IMG/VR virus record: IMGVR_UViG_3300036792_000176
Span: 1 to 64,000 of that record
DNA length: 64,000 bases
Direction: 5' to 3' (one strand)
DNA from: a virus
The translations under genes and the position numbers were made by a program. Below are positions 14,100 through 54,312 of the stretch, piece by piece. The stretch's first letter is position 1. Each line of letters starts with the position of its first letter. The notes beneath the pieces were generated by a model that saw nothing but the letters and a program-made list of their open reading frames with translations, ran no database searches and had not been told where the DNA came from.

Positions 14100-14672
14100 T
14101 TACCGGGTTCTGGCGAAATATCCCGGTCCTTTTAGGGTCGGGACAGAATTGCCGTTGCTCTGGGACAGGCCGAACAGCGTCTCGGCATTGTCGGCGGTGT
14201 ACGAAGGCTGGTACCACACCTGCATCTTGGTTCCGTCGTTCACGCTGTCGTTGACCCGGTCCATGAACATGCCGTTCAAGTCGGCTAGCCCGTAGCCCTG
14301 CGAAGACGGAAAGTTTTCAGCCTGGAACGAATTCCAGATCTGGCTGGCATCACCGTTGCACGTCCAGATCTGAAGCCGGAGTCCGTCCGAGGTCCCGGTC
14401 CCGTCGACGCACTTGCCGTTTTGCATGCGGATCTCGTATCCGCCGGTCACGGGTATCGCCACGAACTCCTGGTTGGCGTTATCCAGGCATGACCACTCCT
14501 GGAGCTGTGTACCGTCATCAGTGCTGTTGAATGGGTCGTCGATACAGTGATCGGTGTTCTGCGAGAAGTAGATGGAGGAGTAGTTAGTCGCATACGCCGG
14601 GCTAGCCAGGACGATCGGGGCAGCTAGAGCGGCCACGCCGATGAACGACATGCAGGCACTTATCTTCTTCAC
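14100..14672 (-). CDS. Secreted ricin B (beta-trefoil) lectin domain protein
   Basis: GTG start with AAGGAG RBS; signal peptide ending AYA; C.D...Q.W.C...NQ.F / QxW repeats. Confidence 0.85.
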   Translation of the reverse strand: MKKISACMSFIGVAALAAPIVLASPAYATNYSSIYFSQNTDHCIDDPFNSTDDGTQLQEWSCLDNANQEFVAIPVTGGYEIRMQNGKCVDGTGTSDGLRLQIWTCNGDASQIWNSFQAENFPSSQGYGLADLNGMFMDRVNDSVNDGTKMQVWYQPSYTADNAETLFGLSQSNGNSVPTLKGPGYFARTR

Positions 14673-14724
14673 TGGATCTCCTTTTCTATGCCGAGTATCG
14701 ATTTGTGCCATGGCCTCAGACGGC

Positions 14725-15192
14725 TCATGGCTCGAACTGCATGACACTAAGGTCGCCGACCGTGACCTTGTCTGTTCGCCTGTACATCTGCGATCCAGTA
14801 ACCTCGGAGTCGTCGTTATAGGTTGGCAGCATCATCGTCCCGCCAACCCAGTGCGACCTGGGGATAGCCATCTGGGTGCCATCCCAGTATCCGCCACTCA
14901 GGACGATATTGACACTCTCGCTCTTCGGATCGTCTATGCGGTGGTCTCGCTCTTCTATGCCCGCTAGTGCCCGCTCTTCCATCAGGTTTGGGCCAGCCCA
15001 CTGAGGAAAGTGCCCTTCTTCGAATACGAGCGTCAAGGTGCATGTTTTGCTGAGCCTTTTGGGCGCTGATGGATCAGGGTCTTCCATCACTCCCCGTGAT
15101 ACGCTTATGGTCGTGATCTTATCGTCGTCGAATACCAGTGACATACCGTCTGCTATCTTCGGGGTGATACGTATCTCGGTCATCAGTACCAC
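14725..15192 (-). CDS. Hypothetical protein
   Basis: ORF in minus-strand operon. Confidence 0.5.
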   Translation of the reverse strand: MVLMTEIRITPKIADGMSLVFDDDKITTISVSRGVMEDPDPSAPKRLSKTCTLTLVFEEGHFPQWAGPNLMEERALAGIEERDHRIDDPKSESVNIVLSGGYWDGTQMAIPRSHWVGGTMMLPTYNDDSEVTGSQMYRRTDKVTVGDLSVMQFEP

Positions 15193-16430: not shown

Positions 16431-16582
16431 CCCTCTCGCGTATATGCAGTCTCCTGGATTCTGTTTCCAGGGTGTCCGCTATATACGGGATTCCGTGTGT
16501 ATCTGTTTGTATCCATCTTATATCTCCGAGGTATAATAAGAGGGTAAAGTCCGGGTCCATCAAACAAGGAGCAAGGGTCACA

Positions 16583-16846
16583 ATGGAAATTCCTGACAAG
16601 TTCTATCGGCAGTCCGATCCGACGCCGCCTAAGCAGCCGCTTCGCATCTTCGGGGACCACCCCAACTCGTTTGCGATAACGTGGCTGTTCTACGCATTCG
16701 TGATCTTCTGGCCATTCATCTTCTTCCACGGAGTTGCACTGGTTATAGTGCAGACTTCGTGGATCGTGTTCATCCTGGCTGTGCTCATCGTGCGCCACAT
16801 CGTGCTGACGATCAGGGACGGTGCGTGGACCAAGTTATCCATGTAG
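16583..16846 (+). CDS. Small two-TM membrane protein
   Basis: AAGGAG RBS, TATAAT upstream (~16533), hydrophobic helices. Confidence 0.65.
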   Translation: MEIPDKFYRQSDPTPPKQPLRIFGDHPNSFAITWLFYAFVIFWPFIFFHGVALVIVQTSWIVFILAVLIVRHIVLTIRDGAWTKLSM

Positions 16847-16874
16847 CCAATTTCGCCTCCCGCCGCTGGCGGTA

Positions 16875-16904
16875 AAAGCCCACTCGTGGAAACGGGTGGG
16901 CTTT
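16875..16904. terminator. Intrinsic terminator (possibly bidirectional)
   Basis: AAAGCCCACTCGT-GGAA-ACGGGTGGGCTTT. Confidence 0.75.
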
Positions 16905-17034
16905 GCCATTGGCTCGCATCGCCATTTTCGTCGCTGATGTTACTGGCGGCAGGAATGCAGTTTGCTGGAAAGTGATTTTTACATCTCCAGTAGAAATAAG
17001 TATCCAGGAGCGCTAGCGCTGTTCTTCCAGACAA

Positions 17035-17225
17035 TATGGTAACCATAATACTTGTATACCATGATGTTAACCACGGTTAACGACTGGTCAGGGTTAGGAC
17101 AGATCCCTTGGTAGCCATAATGTTAACCAACCTACCGAGTCTGTGTCAGCGATACCTTGGTAGCCATAATGGTAGCGAAACTACCGAGTCTCTGTCGGGC
17201 CGAACACTTGGTAGCCAAGGTAACC
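17035..17225. repeat. ~50-bp periodic direct repeats
   Basis: CTTGGTAGCCA at 17107, 17156 and 17207; first two units also share TAAT and CTACCGAGTCT.TGTC; degenerate TGGTAACCATAAT at ~17037. Confidence 0.85.
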
Positions 17226-17297
17226 AGGAGCAACTGGTGACTACGTAAAGTTACAGTGTAACGTTACCATTTCGTTACCCAAAAAGGCCGGTAAGGG

Positions 17298-17326
17298 TAG
17301 CGCCTAGGGGCCCTAGGCGCTATACT
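17298..17326 (+). promoter_or_regulatory. TAGC-class promoter, probable major early promoter
   Basis: TAGCGC-N17-TATACT; shares CCTAGGCGCTATACTTA with the promoter at 21157. Confidence 0.8.
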
Positions 17327-17498
17327 TAAGCTATAGCCCGCCGGTAAGGGGGCGGTAGGGCCCCCGGGCCCGGGGCCCCGCGCCTAGCGCGCGGGGGCCC
17401 GGTCCGGCCCGGGGGCCCGGGGGTAAAGGCCGGTAGGCGCGTACCCCTAGCTAAAAATGAAAGGCCCGGGTACTGCCGGGTAGGGCTTGGTTGCCTAC

Positions 17499-17516
17499 GC
17501 TACTTGAGAACTGAAT
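17499..17516 (+). promoter_or_regulatory. boxA-like antitermination element
   Basis: GCTACTTGAGAACTGAAT resembles the actinobacterial rrn boxA (TTGAGAACTCAA-type). Confidence 0.55.
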
Positions 17517-17519
17517 TTA

Positions 17520-17735
17520 TGACGCCCGTGCTGACGGGCCGGAGTACGGAACCGCGTAGGGAGAGGACTCTACGTAGGCCGTTAATGCCGGGGGACGCCT
17601 AGGTAAACGACTAGGACCCTACCTTTGTATAACCGTAAGTGGGAGTGTTGTGGCGCTCCCGCCCCTACGGTTACCGTGAGGCTAGGCCGATGAATATGGT
17701 AACGGGCTAGCCTACGCGGGTACCGTACGGTACGA
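17520..17735 (+). ncRNA. Highly structured 5' leader / candidate ncRNA
   Basis: Serial stems GCCCGT/ACGGGC, CGTAGGG/CTCTACG, CCTAG/CTAGG, TAACCGTA/TACGGTTA, AGGCTAG/CTAGCCT; no credible ORF. Confidence 0.45.
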
Positions 17736-17760
17736 AAAACCCTTCAAAAGGAGAATTACA

Positions 17761-18156
17761 ATGGGTACCACCGCTCCGAAGACCTCCCCCGCCCCTGCTG
17801 ACGCCCCGGCCCCCGACCTGACGGTCGTCCCGCCGCTGTCCGACGCTGAGGCTGCGCGCGCGGCGCTGAAGGCCGAGCTCGCCGCCGAGATTGAGGCGGA
17901 CCTGCGGGCGAAGCTGACCGCTGAGCTGACCCCGCGCTCCCCGGCCGTGAAGCGTGAGGCCAAAAAGGCGCTCGCCTCGGCGATGATCGCGGCGATGGGT
18001 GACGCCCTGAAGGCGCTGCCCGCCGACCACCCCGCTAACCTGGTCGGCTCGCCCGCTGAGCGCGACCAGATCGTCGCCCAGTGGGTTCACCACTTCCCGG
18101 CCGACCGTGAGACCTGGACCGACCACCTGCCCGCCCCGGTTCGCGCGGGCTGGTAA
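17761..18156 (+). CDS. First early protein; shares QW.HHFPA.R..W..HLP.P.R..W domain with 25940-26932
   Basis: AAGGAG RBS, strong codon bias, clear paralogy. Confidence 0.85.
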   Translation: MGTTAPKTSPAPADAPAPDLTVVPPLSDAEAARAALKAELAAEIEADLRAKLTAELTPRSPAVKREAKKALASAMIAAMGDALKALPADHPANLVGSPAERDQIVAQWVHHFPADRETWTDHLPAPVRAGW

Positions 18157-18234
18157 CTACCGGCGAGTCTGCCTGATCGCCGCCCCCGCCATATGGCGGA
18201 CGGGGGCGGCGGTCGGGTAGGTTACCACGGTAGG

Positions 18235-18263
18235 TAGCCTAAGTACAAAATGTAGGGTATGCT
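18235..18263 (+). promoter_or_regulatory. TAGC-class promoter
   Basis: TAGCCT-N17-TATGCT. Confidence 0.6.
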
Positions 18264-18300
18264 TGAACTGTAAGCTCGCCCCCGTCCGAAAGGTAAGAAA

Positions 18301-18507
18301 ATGTACTCCTCGCTTAACTCCGCCGCCGCTGACGCCGCTGAGATTGCGGTTGACGCCGTGATCGTGTCGGCTGACGCCGAGGGCCTGCTCTCCGACTCCG
18401 CTGTCGTCGGGTACCGCGCCTGGTACGCGGTGTACCTCGCTACCGGTAAGTTCGGCGTTGCTAACGCCGCTAGCTACTGGGCTCCCCGCTACTCCGCTGC
18501 TGAGTAG
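18301..18507 (+). CDS. Small early protein (no His/Gln; CA-free gene)
   Basis: GAAAGG RBS; ORF bounded by repeated intergenic elements. Confidence 0.75.
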   Translation: MYSSLNSAAADAAEIAVDAVIVSADAEGLLSDSAVVGYRAWYAVYLATGKFGVANAASYWAPRYSAAE

Positions 18508-18599
18508 CCTCCCGGCTAACCTGCCTGATCTCCCCGCCCCGTGCGGGGAGGTTGGGTAGGCTACCACGGTAGGTAGCTGTGAAATGAAAGGGGCCCACA

Positions 18600-18854
18600 A
18601 TGCCCAGTACCGAGATGAGCCCCATCGACGTAGCCGAGCAGGTTGGCGGCGACGTGATGACGGCGAGCTACAATGAGGGTCTCGACTGCCAGTCCGACCT
18701 GGTCGGGCTGCGGATCTACGCCGCCATCTACCTGGCCCTGTTCAAGTACGGCCAGTTCGTGGCGGAGTACTACGCCGAGCAGTACTCGGTGAACGACGAG
18801 CCCTACTTCACTGACGCCCATGAGGGTGACAGCGCGTTCGGCCCCCTGAGCTAG
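18600..18854 (+). CDS. Small acidic early protein
   Basis: GAAAGGGG RBS; between repeat elements. Confidence 0.7.
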   Translation: MPSTEMSPIDVAEQVGGDVMTASYNEGLDCQSDLVGLRIYAAIYLALFKYGQFVAEYYAEQYSVNDEPYFTDAHEGDSAFGPLS

Positions 18855-18930
18855 CGGCTAGCTTCCCCGGTGTCCGGGCTACCCGGACACTCGGGGTGGC
18901 TACCACGGTAGGTAGTCAGGAGAGGAAGAA

Positions 18931-19056
18931 ATGCCAAGTGACATGACTGAACTGACCCTCAGGCAGAAGGCCAGGGCGCTGGTCGCCTTCGGCCTGGCCG
19001 ACGACATCAACGAGGCATACGCCCAGCTGGAGGACATGGGCGAGGACGACGACTAG
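18931..19056 (+). CDS. 41-aa early peptide (MPSDMTELTLRQKARALVAFGLADDINEAYAQLEDMGEDDD)
   Basis: Not in ORF track; GGAGAGG RBS; between repeat elements. Confidence 0.7.
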   Translation: MPSDMTELTLRQKARALVAFGLADDINEAYAQLEDMGEDDD

Positions 19057-19138
19057 CGGCCTGCTTTCCCGGGGCTCGGAGCAATCCGAGCCCACGGGAT
19101 GGCTACCCCGATGGTAGTCAGGAGATGGAGAGTAAGAC

Positions 19139-19474
19139 ATGAAGTGCGGATACTGCTCTGATCAAGCGGTGGCCATCCTGACGGCAACGTACATCCGGCA
19201 CCCCAAGCCCACGCCCGTCTGCCAGACGGACCTGGACCGGCTCAACAAGCCCGACAACTTCGACAAGATGCCGACGGTCACGGGCATCGAGCGGGTCTGG
19301 TGCGAGAACCCCGCGCACTCCTCCGATCCGCACTACCCGACCATGACCGGTCGCTACACGGACGCGGACTCCGCTGCCAAGGACCCCAACGAGTGCCACT
19401 GGCCGCACCTGGTGCCGCCGGTCGCCGACCTCCCGGACAGGCCGGAGGGGTACTACCACAGCCCGCTTGGCTAG
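19139..19474 (+). CDS. Small Cys/His-rich early protein
   Basis: CxxC..., GGAG RBS. Confidence 0.7.
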   Translation: MKCGYCSDQAVAILTATYIRHPKPTPVCQTDLDRLNKPDNFDKMPTVTGIERVWCENPAHSSDPHYPTMTGRYTDADSAAKDPNECHWPHLVPPVADLPDRPEGYYHSPLG

Positions 19475-19547
19475 CGGTCCAGCTTCGGTCCCGCCCCTCT
19501 GGGGCGGTGGCCGTGGCTACCCCGATGGTAGTCAAGGAGAGGAAGAG

Positions 19548-19763
19548 ATGAACACCGAGAAGATCGAGCTCCGCATGACTGCCCTGGAGGCTGACTCGGT
19601 AGCTTACGTCATCATGAGTGCCCTCGGTCGAGTCACGATGCTCGACAGGGAGCGCGTCGACGCCACGGCGGCTGCGAACGAGCTGTTCAGGCAGCTGGGG
19701 TACGGGCACCACACCACACTTCACGGCGAGCGCGTCGAGGACAAGGTCAAGGTCAAGTCCTAG
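19548..19763 (+). CDS. Small early protein
   Basis: GGAGAGG RBS before ATG 19548. Confidence 0.7.
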   Translation: MNTEKIELRMTALEADSVAYVIMSALGRVTMLDRERVDATAAANELFRQLGYGHHTTLHGERVEDKVKVKS

Positions 19764-19848
19764 CGGCGAGCTGCCCTGGCCACCCGCCCCGTGCGGGTGA
19801 CCGGGGGAGCTACCACGGTAGGTAGCTGAGCAGGAAGGACAACCCCTT

Positions 19849-20360
19849 ATGCGAGTCCAGACCAAGACCGGCCTGCGTGGGACGGTCATCGACACGAGGG
19901 ATGGCGGGGACAAGAGCCTCGTCCAGTTCGACAACGGAACCACCTGGTGGTGGTTCACCGACTGCCTGGAGGCATTCCACGCCTTCGGCATGTGCTGCGT
20001 CTGCCGTGTGCGCACGGCCATGCGCGGCAGCGGGTACTGCCCTACATGTAGGAGGATCTGATGCAGGTCAAGTTCGAGAACCTCACCCCCACACAGGTCG
20101 CCATGCATATGGCGAACAACTGGAGCGACCCCATGGCAACCGACAGATTCTTCGTCATGGACAAGCTCCCGCTCTGGCCGGGCGATATGGCCCAGATCGG
20201 CCCGTTCACAGTCATCTGCGAGGACACCGAGCTCGACGATGCCAGGTTCACGGTGACCTGGGATGCCGAGCCGTGTATCCACCCCGGCGTGTTCGCCAAC
20301 TCCCAGCCCACAACTCACTGCTGGGCGTGCGACACCGACGTCCCCCGAGAGCTGCTGTAG
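19849..20360 (+). CDS. Two coupled small early genes (19849-20061, 20061-20360)
   Basis: TGATG coupling; Cys motifs. Confidence 0.65.
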
Positions 20361-20453
20361 GACAACCCTCCTGATACCCGAGCCGACCTTCCCTGCGGCT
20401 CGGGTAGCGGGAAGGCTGCCCATCAGGGTAGCTGTGTCGAGAGAGGACACACA

Positions 20454-21131
20454 ATGCTAGAAGAGCTCCTCAAGGAAGCCAGGACCTGGCTGCTCGACTG
20501 CGGCATGAAGCAGTTCGGGCAGTCCAAGAACGACAAGTTCGTGGCCCTGGCGATCCACACCTACTACGACGGCCGCTGGCCCGCGTTCGTCGCGGCCGAC
20601 CCCGCCATGGACGAGTACACGGCACGGCTGGAGATGGACGCGCGCTGGGGCTGCGCCACGGCCGAGAAGTTCCTGCCCGTTAAGGAGGACGAAGATGCAC
20701 TTCCCAGCACCTGAGTGGGGATGGGCCCTGACCGAGAAGGTCGCCATCAGCAGGGTCGGCGACAGCCAGTACCTGATCCTGAGGTTCCCCGAGAACGGCA
20801 GGGACGTCATGCTGGTGACGTTCACGCCCGAGGGCCGGATGTGGCTCAACGGCCAGGACGTCGACGTTGCCGATGACTTCATGGGGTTCATCGGCATGTT
20901 CGACGAGATGAACGCCGACGGCGAGCGCCCCCTGTGGGAGCAGTACATCAGCTACCCGTTCGTAAACGAGGACGAGGAGTAGCAGTGGCCAGATACGAGA
21001 TCCACTATAGCAACGATCACTCCGAGGTCGAGCACCTCTGGCGCGCGGAGGACAAGCTGCTGCCGGAGCTCACCCGCATCGTCGAGACCCCGGGTCTGGA
21101 CCTGCTGCTGGTTCGGGCGCACGAGGCGTAA
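20454..21131 (+). CDS. Three small early genes (20454-20714, 20695-20982, ~20985-21131)
   Basis: Purine-rich RBSs, GC3 bias. Confidence 0.6.
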
Positions 21132-21156
21132 GCGCCTAACGGCCAGCGGATAGGGG

Positions 21157-21185
21157 TAGCGGTGCGCCTACCTAGGCGCTATACT
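21157..21185 (+). promoter_or_regulatory. TAGC-class promoter
   Basis: TAGCGG-N17-TATACT. Confidence 0.8.
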
Positions 21186-21223
21186 TAGGGTAGGCGTACC
21201 GCCCCCGGGAAAGGACAGCAAGA

Positions 21224-23207
21224 ATGGCTAAGGACAGCAATAACCTCCGTGACGTCAGAGGCGTCGAGCACAAGATCCTACCGGACCGCAACAGCAAGTG
21301 GTGCCACCACTGCGCGGTATGGATGGGGATCAACGAGGACCATGAGTGCGACGTTCATCTCGCAATGGACATCTTCAACTACAACTCAACGGTCGCCGCC
21401 AAGATGGCGCTAGGCGAGGGCATTGACCGGGAGACGGTTGCCGCCTGCCTACGCAGCCTGGCCGACGCAATCGAGACCCAGGACTGCGCCGAGGACATGT
21501 CCCCGATCTACGACAGGACACTCTCCCAGCTTCACGGCTGACGGGTTCTATCCTGACGGTTGCTGAGTACCGTCAGGGTGGTGTCCGACAGGACAAGAAG
21601 GAGGAAGAAATGCCTTACGACCACACCCCTGGTTGCGAATGCTACATATGCAAGCCGGATCCGGGACAGGACCCCTTCAAGAACAGCCAGGTCAGCCCGC
21701 CCAGGAGGATCGTGTTCAGGGCAGAGGCGACGAATCACGACTACGTCACCCCAGCCATGGCTGCCAGGCGTGACAAGGCCGCCGCCGAGTTCACGGACCG
21801 CACTCGTCCGCAGGCGGATGTGATCGCCCAGTCCATCCTGGACAGCGACCTGTTCGAAGACATTGACTGCACCGCCCCTCAGGGCAGCGAGGTCGTCTCA
21901 TCGTTCTTCTTCGACGACGAAGAGTACGAGTACGAAGTGACAGTCACCGCAAGGAACAAGACCGAGTACCACATGAACAGGAGCAAGTGATGTCAACCCC
22001 CGTCCCGTCCTGGCTGCTTAACGAGCCGGTCATCGTCACGCTGGTGGCCATGAACCCCGATGCCGCCTGCACCGCAGTCCTGATCAACAGGGAGATCGTG
22101 CCGGCCTCGTACAACAGGCCTCACGTGCCAAACTCCACGGCCGTCGTCATCATCTACGGCGAGGGCTTCGTGTCAGTCAACGGTGAGGACATCATGGCCG
22201 ACGAGAGCGACGAGACCATCCAGCGCCTCTGCAGCCTGGCCGACGTCGTGACCATGGCCCCCAACCCCCAGTGCGGCACCTGGGTCCGCACGCAGGACAC
22301 CTACATCCAGGACCACTTCAACGCCGAGGCAGACAGGAACAGGTAACATGACGAACCCCATCGCAAGGAACATCGCGGTCGCCATCGCTGACGAGTGCAG
22401 CATGTCGTACCACCCCGTGACCGAGGACACCGTCCTCGGTGACATGACCGTCGGTGACGTCGAGCCGGGCGGTGCCAACCGCCCGAACGAGCTGTCAAGG
22501 TTCACCCTACAGGATGACGACTGGCTGTACACGGTGGTTGTCCGGCGCGATCGGCCAGTCCGATGACCGTCATGCGGCAGGTCCTGCCGATCCTGAACTC
22601 CAAGCTGTTCACATGGAGCAGGGAGAGCAAGTCGTACGTGGCCGAGGCATCTGACCTCGGCCTCCGGGCTGGATTCCAGTTCGGTCGGGTGTATGATGAC
22701 TCGATCGACGAGGGATTCACAATGCAGTCCCAGTTCGACCCCAGCGACCACGTGGTCTGCGTGGTCACGGACATCGATACCAAGGAGGGGGACGTCAGGT
22801 TCTGGGTCCTCAAGCCGGTCAGGAACACCGATCGGCTCGACTGGAAAGTAATCATCTTCAACGATTAGGAGCAAGCAGTGAAGGACGCAGACGCAACACA
22901 GATCAAGCACGGACGCTCCAGGATCTACCTGTACCCAAACGGTGAGATCGTGGTGGTCCAGTCCAACAACCTGAGCAAGCCGCCCATGAACGTGACAACG
23001 GACTGCGACGGCGAGCGTACCAGCTTTACCATCCCGGCTCATTACCCGGACAAGATCGACCCTGAGAACCCGGACACCTGGCGCTACTACTGCCCGGCTC
23101 ACCCGGAGGCCACGGTCGCCGATGCTGTACAGGACGGGGCCGAGATGACATGCGGCCACGCGGTGACGGTGCGCCGCCTATACACCCCAGAGCCCGAAAA
23201 CGACTGA
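21224..23207 (+). CDS. Run of six small hypothetical genes (21224-21541, 21610-21990, 21987-22346, 22348-22566, 22563-22868, 22878-23207)
   Basis: Contiguous or coupled ORFs with RBSs. Confidence 0.65.
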
Positions 23208-50154: not shown

Positions 50155-51093
50155 ATGCGTACGACAATCCGCCGAGCACTGCTCGGCATCAGCGCTGCGG
50201 CGCTGTGCGCGGTTGGCCTGGCTATCCCGGCCGTCGCGAATGCTTCTGCGAGTGTTGCGGCTACGCCGCTCAGTGTCGCTCTGTACCACAACGGTGACAG
50301 CAAGGCGACATGGGACGCCAGCGGCAACCCGGTTCTTACTGCCGGGACGGACGCCGGAACGTCCGCCCAGGTGCAGATCAAGAATGTGCACGGAACGCAG
50401 CTGCCCACCACCGAGCCGTCGTTCACCGCGTCGGCGTCCGGCGGTGGTGACCCGCGCTGGGTGATCGAGCTGCACAACGGCCAGTACCTGTTCGGCTACC
50501 CGTACCAGCCTGCGGCCACGCGCTGGTCGGTCAACCCGGGTGGCAACCAGAACACTGACTACGCAACAGCTGTCGCGGCTGCCGAGGCTGGCGGGTCTGA
50601 TAACTACATCACCGCCGCGTTCATCGTGGACGATCAGGGCGGCAACAGCCTGGGAGCGGTCACCCTGACCGGCGTCCAGTACAACGGGGAGACCCTGGCT
50701 GCTCCTGTCGTGTTCAGCGGCGGGATCGTGAACAAGAACAGCGGCAAGTGCCTGGACGTGACCGGGGCGTTCGGGACGTTTGCGGCCGGACAGGGCCTGC
50801 AGCAGTGGACGTGCGGCGCGGCGGGCGGCGAGGACCAGCACTTCACGCTGACCACTGAGCCGGACAACTCGTCGTACCTAACCATTGGCGGCCTGTACGT
50901 CACCACGAGCACCCAAGGTGCGCAGATGACCCTGGTGACGGCCCCGACCACAATGGTCAAGTCGGGCCCGTACTACAAGTGGACCTCACTGGTCATGGAT
51001 GTGCGGGCGCGCTCGCTCTCCAACGGCGCGGTCGTTCAGGGCTACGCCCAGCAGGCGACTAACAACAACAACCAGCAGTGGTCGCTCCCGTAA
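50155..51093 (+). CDS. Secreted protein with C-terminal ricin B lectin domain
   Basis: Signal peptide; NKNSGKCLDV, QQW.C, NQQW. Confidence 0.85.
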   Translation: MRTTIRRALLGISAAALCAVGLAIPAVANASASVAATPLSVALYHNGDSKATWDASGNPVLTAGTDAGTSAQVQIKNVHGTQLPTTEPSFTASASGGGDPRWVIELHNGQYLFGYPYQPAATRWSVNPGGNQNTDYATAVAAAEAGGSDNYITAAFIVDDQGGNSLGAVTLTGVQYNGETLAAPVVFSGGIVNKNSGKCLDVTGAFGTFAAGQGLQQWTCGAAGGEDQHFTLTTEPDNSSYLTIGGLYVTTSTQGAQMTLVTAPTTMVKSGPYYKWTSLVMDVRARSLSNGAVVQGYAQQATNNNNQQWSLP

Positions 51094-52376: not shown

Positions 52377-52450
52377 GGCGGGGTGGAGCAGTTTGGTAGC
52401 TCGCCGGACTCATAATCCGTAGGTCGTCAGTTCGAATCTGGCCCCCGCTA
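52377..52450 (+). tRNA. tRNA-Met(CAT), initiator-like scaffold
   Basis: GGCGGGG/CCCCGCT acceptor, GAGC/GCTC D stem, CTCATAA loop, TTCGAAT T loop. Confidence 0.9.
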
Positions 52451-52487
52451 CGTGCATCCGCACAATTCCACCCGAGATTGGAATAGA

Positions 52488-53917: not shown

Positions 53918-54123
53918 TGCCAGTTCCAGAGCGCGTGACGGCATCCGTCCGCCCAGAGATATTCGAGGACCTCCGCAAGAGTGTAGAGAGGAATGGGGTC
54001 TCGCAGACGTATATCATAAACCAGGCTATTAAATTGTACGAGTTTGTTGACTCCGAGATCGCTGCTGGTGCAGACATGATACTGCGCCGAGATGGTGTAG
54101 AGAAGCTTATAGAACTGTTCTAG
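53917..54123 (+). CDS. Ribbon-helix-helix DNA-binding protein
   Basis: RVTASV.PE....L......GVSQT.IIN.AI..Y. Confidence 0.7.
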   Translation: MPVPERVTASVRPEIFEDLRKSVERNGVSQTYIINQAIKLYEFVDSEIAAGADMILRRDGVEKLIELF

Positions 54124-54196
54124 GGGTGTTAGCTCAGCCGGTCAGAGCAGCGGACTCATAATCCGCCGGTCGTGGGTTCGAGCCCCACACACCCCA
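54123..54196 (+). tRNA. tRNA with CAT anticodon (Ile2/lysidine-type or elongator Met)
   Basis: Full cloverleaf GGGGTGT/ACACCCC, GCGGA-CTCATAA-TCCGC, GTGGG-TTCGAGC-CCCAC. Confidence 0.92.
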
Positions 54197-54312
54197 CAGG
54201 GAAGGAGGAAGCCGTATGTGAGCACCTAGATCACACGCCGTGCCTTGCGTGTCGTGCACCACAGCGACGGCAGCGGCATCCTTCTTCCCGCAAGGTTGCC
54301 ACGGGATCCCAC

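Follow-up and report, generated by a model that had tools for sequence, protein, structure and literature searches.

Layout of the array

What are the seven spacers that punctuate a run of small genes on the + strand of an uncultured soil phage, and what do they do for the genes on either side? The phage is integrase-less and actinophage-like, its host presumably being actinobacterial. It is represented by an IMG/VR record (IMGVR_UViG_3300036792_000176; G000) of 87,997 nt, and the window analyzed here is the first 64,000 nt of that record. The initial annotation had viewed the spacers either as sites acting in mRNA processing, stability or translation control, or as attC-like recombination sites; taken as a whole, its interpretation is partly supported. 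We propose, with moderate confidence, that the elements (W1–W7) are post-transcriptional punctuation and insulation modules of a presumed early operon, and that they double as recombination joints.

All seven spacers lie within 18154–20456. In each of them a stop codon is followed by a long hairpin, GC-rich and variable in sequence, and then by a short hairpin, an AGGAG-like Shine–Dalgarno sequence and an ATG (7/7), as had been claimed. All seven keep one orientation and a fixed register with respect to stop codon and Shine–Dalgarno site. The stop is TAA at 18154 and TAG at 18505, 18852, 19054, 19472, 19761, and 20358; those at 18852, 19054, 19472, and 19761 were confirmed to lie within CTAGCGG. 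When the CTAGC[GT]G copies of G000 and of a related phage, G001, were taken together, the TAG of the element was the in-frame stop in six of seven, against one third expected. The long stems (~12–20 pairs, GC-rich) come directly after the stop codons. Between the end of the short hairpin and the start codon there are 13–21 nt in six of the seven spacers, and a role in translation control is conceivable. Since the long and short hairpins abut with a gap of 0–2 nt, a single-strand-specific cut between them is unlikely.

The short-hairpin consensus put forward earlier, GCTACC-(ACGGTA or CCGAT)-GGTAGY, holds for five spacers and does not quite cover W1 and W7. The variants are GCTACC-ACGGTA-GGTAG (three elements), GTTACC-ACGGTA-GGTAG (W1), GCTACC-CCGAT-GGTAG (two elements), and GCTGCC-CATCAG-GGTAG (W7). 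The loop is 6 nt in W1–W3 and W6, 5 nt in W4 and W5, 4 nt in W7 and the G001 element C, and 7 nt in the G001 element D, the stem being kept throughout. The pattern GCTACC-N6-GGTAG with at most one mismatch gave 17 matches on both strands compared with 1.06 expected, 10 of the 17 being five array sites counted on each strand; none of 100 shuffles reached 17. For the N5 pattern, four matches were obtained against 0.96 expected (3/100 shuffles reached four). No further good copies were found outside 18.2–20.4 kb in the whole 87,997-nt genome. W1 is also entered as inverted repeat I4 in the repeat listing.

Table 1. Positions of the spacer elements, the genes around them and the presumed promoter region
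Feature	Position	Strand	Description
Presumed promoter region of rightward operon	17043..17217	+	CCATAAT −10-like boxes at 17043, 17115, 17164
g1	17761..18156	+	ORF, 131 aa; first operon gene
W1	18154..18240	+	stop TAA, CTACCG, long hairpin ~18169–18220, short hairpin 18220–18239 (GGTTACC-ACGGTA-GGTAGCC); z −6.21
gA	18301..18507	+	ORF, 68 aa; paralogue of gB
W2	18505..18578	+	stop TAG, long hairpin ~18517–18558, short hairpin 18559–18578; z −5.49
gB	18600..18854	+	ORF, 84 aa
W3	18851..18917	+	stop in CTAGCGG, long hairpin, short hairpin 18898–18917; z −4.43
gC	18931..19056	+	41 aa; homologue in G001
W4	19053..19119	+	stop in CTAGCGG, long hairpin, short hairpin 19101–19119, loop CCGAT; z −4.19
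gD	19139..19474	+	ORF, 111 aa; Cys-rich, no family
W5	19471..19533	+	stop in CTAGCGG, long hairpin, short hairpin 19515–19533, loop CCGAT; z −2.53
gE	19548..19763	+	ORF, 71 aa
W6	19760..19827	+	stop in CTAGCGG, long hairpin, short hairpin 19808–19827; z −2.46
gF and gG	19849..20360	+	70 aa and 99 aa; overlap TGATG, no element between
W7	20358..20433	+	stop TAG, long hairpin, short hairpin 20414–20433 (GGCTGCCC-ATCA-GGGTAGCT); z −5.68
gH and gI	20454..20982	+	ORFs, 86 aa and 95 aa; overlapping

Genes and the presumed promoter region

Upstream of g1 lies a putative promoter region of the rightward operon, its activity presumed from sequence features. CCATAAT occurs three times in the 87,997-nt genome, always in this region, and each of the three boxes is preceded by TGGTA[AG]CC. 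The region also contains 49-bp tandem repeats (17097–17217; direct-repeat families D6 and D11) and one sigma-70-like match (17143–17170). A consensus scan of 16500–22500 gave five promoter-like sites, none of them on the + strand within 18157–20460. The hexamer after the short hairpin, read by eye, fits TAnnnT in 2 of 11 elements. The elements were also considered as decayed promoter repeats, on account of shared GGTAGCC and CTACCG..AGTCT; the likeness is short and at about chance level.

No Pfam or PHROG match was obtained for g1, which has homologues in G001 (78% over 82 aa) and in another relative, G003 (40%). None of the 14 array-region ORFs carries a Pfam family, and two gave weak PHROG matches with no function assigned. 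The paralogues gA and gB (blastp 37% over 62 aa, E 3e-7) each have the same element subtype upstream. The G001 homologue of gC lies at a different place (L038 5521–5622), and no element motifs were seen on reading its flanks. The N- and C-terminal parts of gG match two separate G001 genes; gH is missing from this place in G001, and gI is 71% identical to its G001 orthologue. Gene-boundary junctions are common in phage mosaics even without any special element.

Protein families were scanned on a crudely picked set of ORFs of at least 50 aa. No phage RNA polymerase, sigma factor, RNase III, or known RNA-binding protein was found in 70 ORFs with Pfam or in 43 with PHROGs. Two proteins encoded by the phage, a Sak4-like annealing protein and an exonuclease, could carry out recombination of short repeats.

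Extent of the family and its relatives

A covariance model (R1) was built on six copies and used to search 427,577 nt from 22 sources. It recovered three non-seed copies, namely W1 (37.5 bits, E 1.3e-6), W2 (37.2 bits, E 1.5e-6) and the G001 element C (21.3 bits), and nothing else at E < 0.01. The seed copies W3, W4, W5, and W6 scored 81.9, 71, 51.6, and 78.3 bits, respectively. W7 (+ strand) and the G001 element A were missed by the model. W7 is 78% identical to G001 element C, which occupies the orthologous place, and W6 is 84% identical to two G001 elements. The seven spacers are paralogous copies of one family. Whole-record searches of G000 and four other records (G001–G004) confined this family to the G000 array and the syntenic array of G001.

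Elements of G000 and G001 are 76–85% identical and orthologous genes 71–80%, while most of the intervening genes are unrelated. Gene content differs at places bounded by elements. This turnover fits homologous exchange between repeat copies, of the sort described for T4-type PeSLs, and not site-specific cassette capture.

Outside these arrays, no near-identical DNA was found among named phages. The exact short-hairpin motifs gave 0 matches in IMG/VR, where g1 led to G001 as the only relative. Neither gI relatives nor the 22-nt element pattern was found in metagenome contigs. The short-hairpin 17-mer had eight single matches in 185,579 species genomes, scattered over unrelated taxa, a distribution that rules out a host repeat. 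Among sequencing runs, one of soil DNA contains the stretch and may be where it came from, and no RNA run was found to contain it. Rfam returned no family match, the sole hit (23.7 bits against a gathering score of 90; E 0.51) being to a plant microRNA model.

The more distant G002 and G004 have repeated families, of their own sequence, of long and strongly covarying intercistronic hairpins. In the G002/G004 family, 9 of 13 long-stem pairs were changed on both sides, and none of 500 shuffles reached any of five measures. The stop codon lies in the basal helix in both phages, and a small alternative hairpin, GGGC-loop-GCCC, is permitted; in G002 the 3′ strand of that helix falls within the loop of this hairpin. 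Structured spacers, four in number and unrelated in sequence, occur in G003 as well.

Folding, covariation and strand bias

Folding of the sense strand gave z-scores from −2.46 to −6.21 for the seven elements. Five of these were beaten by none of 200 shuffles, and the other two by 4/200 and 5/200. When the genome was folded in sliding 80-nt segments, 10 of the 36 strongest + strand peaks (MFE ≤ −40) fell in 17.29–21.21 kb. The sense MFE was equal to or below the antisense MFE in all seven elements. The G–T pairing described in the initial annotation was borne out, with 29 G·U pairs among 286 in the sense folds of 11 elements, along with two A·C mismatches. Because of these G·U pairs the sense strand is the more stable.

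Conservation of pairing was assessed in nine sequences. For the long stem and short hairpin together, 92.6% of cells were paired, compared with 22.6–53.6% when the partners were slid. Thirteen cells were changed on both sides, and none of 500 shuffles matched this count or the covariation score. For the long stem alone, 4 of 10 pairs were changed on both sides and the covariation score was again matched by 0/500 shuffles, controls that overstate independence since the family occurs in two genomes only and its copies are paralogous. The long-stem covariation and the stability that G·U pairs lend to the sense strand led us to read the module as an RNA element, which supports the RNA level of the processing or stabilizing sites suggested earlier. 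In the short hairpin, where pairing holds in 96.7% of cells, three of the seven pairs show no variation, so that the stem sequence is kept beyond what pairing alone would account for. Consistent anti-Shine–Dalgarno pairing inside the W-type elements was not seen by eye.

A second fold, mutually exclusive with the first, is kept equally well. Here the stop codon lies within CUAGCG, whose partner is the YGGUAG of the short-hairpin loop, and the spacer becomes one extended hairpin in which an internal loop separates a lower from an upper stem. This fold is the MFE structure for W1, W3, and W6. The two folds are approximately isoenergetic (within ~1.5 kcal/mol) in five of the eight elements computed. 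In the other three (W4, W5, and G001 element C) the extended fold is disfavored by 4–6.6 kcal/mol; thus an RNase III-type substrate is not uniform among the copies.

Proposed role of the elements

What the sequences show directly is a family of repeats restricted to the array, conserved and covarying pairing, a sense-strand bias, and gene turnover beside the elements, and our proposal builds on this. We picture one cis-acting RNA module of 65–85 nt, which would act from the sense strand of a presumed early operon, the first to run rightward, read presumably as a single mRNA. The module starts at or beside the upstream stop codon and ends with the short hairpin, a few bases before the next Shine–Dalgarno site. 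The apex of the long hairpin is free to vary provided that pairing holds. This hairpin would protect the 3′ side of the upstream cistron, with a possible effect on stability, and in its extended form it may be a signal for double-strand-specific (RNase III-type) cleavage. The short hairpin would provide an identical insulated leader for the translation of each downstream gene, placed before its RBS, whichever gene precedes. As there is no recognizable promoter or terminator, such an adaptor would act after transcription. Because the copies are 76–85% alike, they could also serve as joints at which single-gene units are duplicated and exchanged by recombination.

Phage early regions are rich in small orphan genes with quick turnover, and how a newly acquired gene comes to be expressed at once is poorly understood beyond T4, with its PeSLs, and T7, with its RNase III sites. 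Besides a structured spacer, an adaptor of the kind proposed would supply a context for the stop and an insulated leader of standard form. The own-sequence families of comparable layout in related soil phages suggest that this class of gene punctuation is under-described and widespread. The modules may help to account for the ESAS and CR repeats of mycobacteriophages, and could serve as natural insulators in polycistronic designs for high-GC bacteria.

Alternative explanations

The short hairpin (GGCTACC-N5-6-GGTAGY) could instead be an operator bound by a protein of phage or host, the long hairpin being a separate signal; we consider this possible but unlikely. It might work as an RNA hairpin by the RBS, where a translational repressor would switch off the array genes all at once in the manner of T4 RegA or the coat-protein operators. 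Alternatively, it might work as a double-stranded DNA palindrome forming a roadblock, a comparison being the cluster A mycobacteriophage stoperators or the inverted repeats that are conserved in phiC31. The invariant stem sequence would also fit protein recognition, and the single orientation and fixed position before the Shine–Dalgarno site at all sites agree with an operator. So does the occurrence of a related motif, TGGTAGCC, which reads as GGCTACCA on the opposite strand, immediately ahead of two of the three CCATAAT boxes and in a third copy of the repeat. One inverted match amounts to 13/14 (I16), but a match of this quality is estimated to occur about once by chance in 4.5 kb. The length of the loop varies between 4 and 7 nt while the stem is kept, and the stem departures in W1 and W3–W7, read by eye, are G·U on the sense strand; a hairpin is therefore favored over a DNA site of fixed spacing. 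No DNA- or RNA-binding family was detected in the 14 array-region ORFs and 70 others, although orphan proteins could still bind. Moreover, the motif is not common to the more distant G002 and G004.

That the hairpins are terminators or attenuators without U-tails, grading expression along the array or requiring a phage antiterminator, is rather improbable. Their GC-rich stems stand right after stop codons, with hairpins in tandem, and terminators without U-tails have been reported for the early region of phiC31. However, a run of at least four T is present in none of the seven spacers, and a scan found no + strand terminator-like site within the array. In vitro, mycobacterial RNA polymerase failed to terminate at hairpins lacking a U-tract, even with NusA and NusG (PMC3993855). 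Seven efficient terminators in series would also silence the distal genes.

We are similarly doubtful of a two-state RNA switch that would sense translation by means of the two exclusive folds. With no ribosome present, the stop codon in CUAGCG would pair with YGGUAG of the short-hairpin loop, and the whole spacer would form one long helix with the stop codon and the next RBS at the same end. A ribosome arriving at the stop codon would melt the lower stem, and the short hairpin would then close beside the Shine–Dalgarno site. The fold before each gene would thereby report whether the preceding gene had just been translated. If true, this would amount to ribosome coupling or handover across a structured gap of 70–90 nt, a bacterial counterpart of the ribosome shunt.

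Selfish or neutral repeats, that is, miniature palindromic elements spreading in the array with no role in expression, would also be repeated, palindromic, restricted to a plastic region and different in different relatives. This reading is very unlikely in view of the fixed orientation and register, the in-frame use of the element's TAG as stop, an identity between phages as high as that of coding sequence, and compensatory changes that preserve pairing.

Single-gene capture and swapping at attC-like or other site-specific recombination sites folded in single-stranded DNA, suggested by conserved ends around a variable center, by units of single genes, and by the gene content differing beside elements in G000 and G001, is largely refuted and exceedingly improbable: tyrosine (PF00589) and serine (PF00239) recombinases were absent from all three records searched (G000, G001, and G002), with 14/14 control genomes positive for the former, the core sites GTTRRRY and RYYYAAC were present in 1/7 and 0/7 spacers, and an RBS at one end with a stop codon at the other ties the element to expression.

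Comparison with known systems

The early transcript of T7 carries the RNase III sites R0.3, R0.5, R1, R1.1, and R1.3. Like these, the elements are related, irregular hairpins repeated in the gaps of small early genes (early being presumed here), and both sets stand downstream of tandem promoter-like repeats. The extended fold, with its lower and upper stems on either side of an internal loop, may compare with the irregular hairpin of about two helical turns expected of such a site. Unlike the T7 sites, to which they bear no sequence relation, the elements belong to a phage of a presumably actinobacterial host and their cleavage is putative. They also carry a second, short hairpin that is conserved and cannot form together with the lower stem, and three of the eight elements computed disfavor the extended fold.

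Integron attC sites, too, are palindromic though imperfect, are conserved at their ends and variable at the center, and follow single promoterless genes. In contrast to attC, no integrase or core sites were found here, and the sense-strand bias together with the tie to stop codon and RBS points to RNA.

The PeSLs of T4-type phages, as described in PMC2839356 and PMC4122927, are repeated units of ~50–80 nt that reach from an upstream stop to the Shine–Dalgarno sequence and start of the next small orphan gene. They resemble the elements also in their G–T-paired stem-loops, their plastic region, and the gene content that differs alongside them between close relatives. A PeSL includes a consensus sigma-70 promoter whose upstream region is AT-rich, and its stem-loops act as terminators (PMC2839356; PMC4122927), whereas the array here has no + strand sigma-70-like site, no T runs, and GC-rich spacers.

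Within the actinophages, the SAS/ESAS of cluster K, in the descriptions available, are associated with non-structural genes only and have one orientation. A start-site motif follows an imperfect inverted repeat with a variable spacer, as in 7/7 spacers here, the sequences being unrelated. Those descriptions, as of 2025, report no experimental verification of SAS/ESAS function. The 13-bp SAS (GGGATAGGAGCCC) with up to two mismatches gave four matches against 2.55 expected, none of them in the array. ESAS arms are described as 17 bp long, separated by 4–13 bp and conserved in sequence; here, by contrast, the long stem is variable and conservation resides in the second, short hairpin. A link to an upstream stop codon, as seen here, is not mentioned in the ESAS descriptions available.

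The CR1–CR4 repeats of cluster M mycobacteriophages, likened here by general description only, are likewise conserved; they separate many genes of the non-structural arm and have stem-loops on their upstream side. Genes inserted there are stated to bring their own copy of the repeat (PMC7953290). On our reading, the array is a known kind of phage gene punctuation, to which the T7 RNase III sites, the T4 PeSLs, and the ESAS and CR repeats of mycobacteriophages also belong, in a sequence form that is new.

Layout and kinship of the elements

Reading and folding of the seven gaps of the array (elements W1–W7) confirmed the order given in the initial annotation: a stop codon, a long GC-rich hairpin, a short hairpin, an AGGAG-like site, and ATG, with the stop codon lying within CTAGCGG in four of the gaps. 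The consensus proposed there for the short hairpin, GCTACC-(ACGGTA or CCGAT)-GGTAGY, held in five of the seven gaps (GCTACC-ACGGTA-GGTAG in three, GCTACC-CCGAT-GGTAG in two) and was slightly too narrow for W1 (GTTACC-ACGGTA-GGTAG) and W7 (GCTGCC-CATCAG-GGTAG). With the N6 short-hairpin pattern, 17 matches were found where 1.06 were expected, ten of the 17 being the five array sites counted on each strand; 17 was reached in none of 100 shuffles. A less stringent genome-wide scan gave no more good copies beyond 18.2–20.4 kb. Neighbouring array genes either have an element between them or overlap (gF/gG, gH/gI), and no plain spacer occurs between genes within the array. The W1 short hairpin and the start of gA are separated by an unusually long stretch of 60 nt, where a minimal start-stop ORF (ATG TAG) may be due to chance.

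The element copies could be aligned, and fall into the subtypes W1/W2, W3/W4/W5, W6, and W7. The window supplied four copies and the related phage G001 two for the building of a covariance model. Searches with the model recovered three copies outside the seed, namely W1 (37.5 bits), W2 (37.2 bits), and G001-C (21.3 bits), with no other match at E<0.01 in 427,577 nt from 22 sources; the next match was the antisense of W3. W7 and G001-A were missed by the model. W7 was joined to the family because it is 78% identical to G001-C at the orthologous place, while G001-A, which shares the element layout, is only a putative member. Whole-record searches of the phage of the window (G000) and of its relatives G001–G004 confined the family to the arrays of two genomes, G000 and G001.

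Folding of the elements

The sense-strand folds of the elements had z-scores of −2.46 to −6.21, and 10 of the 36 most stable 80-nt plus-strand windows of the genome lie at 17.29–21.21 kb. In a nine-copy alignment, which was made by the model and hence is biased toward the modelled fold, 92.6% of the cells of the long stem and short hairpin were paired, compared with 22.6–53.6% when the partners were slid. Both sides had changed in 13 cells; this count and the covariation score were each reached by none of 500 shuffles, a generous control since the copies are paralogues. The sense fold was at least as stable as the antisense fold in all seven elements, with a tie for W6. The G-T pairs noted earlier in the stems were found again as 29 G·U pairs in the sense folds, along with two A·C single mismatches. 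By reading, the short-stem departures in W1 and W3–W7 are G·U on the sense strand, and the short stem of G001-A has a U-A to A-U swap beside one broken pair. We conclude that it is as a fold of the sense strand that the element is under selection. The simplest reading of such a fold is RNA; top-strand single-stranded DNA is formally possible too.

When six copies were submitted to RNAalifold, one long hairpin was returned and not the two of the initial annotation. In this second fold the partner of CUAGCG, which contains the stop codon, is YGGUAG, and beneath the long stem two AGCU sequences pair with each other. Because YGGUAG falls within the short hairpin, in its loop and 3′ arm, the two folds are mutually exclusive. 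The lower stem, whose pairs are absent from the covariance model, was paired in 93.3% of cells of the nine-copy alignment; one of its positions is G-C in seven copies and U-A in one, and CUACCG of W1 converts its sole internal mismatch to a pair. The energy gap between the folds was about 1.5 kcal/mol or less for W1, W3, W6, G001-B, and G001-D, and the short hairpin was favoured by 4–6.6 kcal/mol for W4, W5, and G001-C. Therefore, the two-hairpin layout is dominant or co-dominant in all elements; the extended helix is predicted to be a real alternative in the ACGGUA-loop subtype only.

Comparison with related phages

Thirty related IMG/VR contigs were gathered via terminase. G001, whose terminase is 91% identical, carries four elements in a syntenic array; between G000 and G001 the elements are 76–85% identical and orthologous genes 71–80%. 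Gene content between the elements differs: the G001 array lacks counterparts of the five single-gene units from W1 to W6 (gC alone among them has a G001 homologue, placed elsewhere), and gH, directly after W7, is found in the window only. Moreover, the element after gI in G001 is missing in the window, and two downstream genes differ in order. The gG gene is a mosaic of parts of two G001 genes, its residues 4–71 matching one (45%) and its Cys-rich tail, residues 72–99, the end of the other (54%, with an 18-nt identical stretch). Duplication of an element-plus-gene unit is indicated by the paralogy of gA and gB, both of which follow a W1/W2-type element.

The W-type family was not found in G002 (terminase 77%) or G004 (65%). 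Between their cistrons these two phages have repeated elements of their own; the ends are conserved, the apex varies, and a small GGGC-loop-GCCC hairpin is invariant. Comparison of six copies showed changes on both sides of 9 of the 13 long-stem pairs, and none of 500 shuffles reached any of five measures. The upstream stop codon lies within the basal helix of the minimum-energy structure in seven of the nine spacers folded. The four structured spacers of G003 (75%) are unrelated in sequence. Across the phage group it is layout that is held in common, not sequence.

In the minimum-energy fold of one G003 spacer, the Shine-Dalgarno sequence GAGGAGG pairs with CCUCGCC, a part of the 3′ arm of the hairpin before it; the predicted fold looks like a classical coupling switch, unlike the W-type elements. 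The early region of G002, GC-rich elsewhere, is interrupted by an AT-rich non-coding stretch with many copies of ACTACCGTTTCT; this stretch is a possible origin or iteron block.

Control region and genomic setting

The G000 record has 87,997 nt (CheckV completeness 93%, GC about 60%), the window being its first 64,000 nt, and the sequence was present in one soil DNA run. The nearest named phage for the portal protein is Streptomyces phage Dagobah (39.7% amino-acid identity); besides this match, an actinobacterial host is suggested by an Rpf-like transglycosylase with LysM. The array stands at the start of the rightward gene block, directly downstream of a divergent control region, and its genes would be early ones, judging from this position. 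Gene calls were made in this analysis.

Upstream of g1, the promoter-like box CCATAAT has its sole three copies in the 88-kb genome, each preceded by TGGTA[AG]CC. Two of them lie within 49-bp tandem repeats, followed by a third, degenerate repeat copy. Present in each 49-bp repeat is CTACCGAG..CTTGGTAG, whose pairing could form an 8-bp stem at the transcript 5′ end; G001 has a single copy (CCTTGGTTACCATAAT). The arrangement is reminiscent of the T7 tandem early promoters. Within the long leader of g1 lies a GC-rich palindromic block of extreme stability, unmatched in the rest of the genome. A further segment of the leader shares 84% identity with G001 and is better conserved than the adjacent coding sequence, which makes it a candidate for a regulatory RNA or leader structure. 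Direct repeats (GGGTAGCG..CCTAGGCGCTATACTTA, 17 nt identical), about 3.86 kb apart, flank g1 and the entire array; the pair was seen in G000 only, among all loci compared.

Positions of the features described (window coordinates unless a locus is named)
Feature	Position	Strand	Remark
Terminase, portal, protease, capsid genes	4.1–11 kb	−	
Protein with ricin-type beta-trefoil lectin domain	14100–14747	−	structural arm
CCATAAT boxes and 49-bp tandem repeats	17043–17217		three boxes
Direct repeat, left copy	17280–17345		
GC-rich palindromic block	17290–17450		80-nt MFE −67.5 (+ strand), −63.9 (− strand)
Conserved leader segment	17521–17619		G001 locus L038, 10447–10544
Rightward genes	from 17761		primase-helicase, SNF2 helicase, ParB-like, exonuclease, Sak4-like annealase, ThyX-like
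Elements W1–W7	18154–20456	+	
Minimal ORF before gA	18252–18257		
gG	20061–20360		parts of L038 8684–8905 and 9312–9674
Direct repeat, right copy	21140–21215		long hairpin ahead of gene at 21224
Protein with ricin-type beta-trefoil lectin domain	50155–51093	+	among replication genes
tRNA-Met (CAT), two genes	52377–52451; 54123–54197		1.7 kb apart, replication region
G003 spacer	L040 8573–8671		
G002 AT-rich stretch	L020 about 700–1320	−	

Discussion

Our favoured reading, to which we give roughly an even chance, is that the elements act as post-transcriptional punctuation; we infer every step of this mechanism beyond structure and the comparative pattern. The long hairpin would shield the 3′ side of the upstream cistron, and its extended form would possibly be a double-strand-specific processing signal. 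The short hairpin would provide a constant, insulated leader ahead of each ribosome-binding site, and the repeats may be joints for homologous exchange, aided by the phage-encoded exonuclease and annealase. A scan of ORFs turned up neither a phage RNA polymerase, sigma factor, or RNase III nor any known RNA-binding domain; presumably, host enzymes are employed.

The main rival, that the short hairpin is a protein operator, draws on the conserved sequence of its stem and on a related motif that adjoins the promoter-like boxes; we consider it unlikely. Less probable again is tail-less transcription termination, which is weakened by an in vitro result with mycobacterial polymerase (PMC3993855). 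The plus strand of the array yielded neither T-tailed terminators nor sigma-70-like sites, and no spacer has a run of four T. The attC-like recombination sites of the initial annotation are very unlikely, as no tyrosine or serine recombinases were found in G000–G002 and no attC core sites in the spacers. The elements matched no Rfam family, the cluster K SAS consensus was not enriched, and a host repeat was rejected as the identity of the short-hairpin motif.

Keyword searches of the open-access literature found no description of the element sequence family or of the stop-codon/loop pairing, which does not prove their absence. In their proposed working, the elements are nearest to the RNase III sites of T7. 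Among actinophage repeats, the cluster K SAS/ESAS have inverted repeats upstream, and their function is still without experimental verification (PMC3203893, PMC12699233). The cluster M CR repeats have stem-loops upstream, and inserted genes bring a repeat copy (PMC7953290). In genome behaviour the elements most closely resemble the PeSLs of T4-type phages (PMC2839356, PMC4122927). A sigma-70 promoter defines the PeSLs, and no such promoter was found in the elements.
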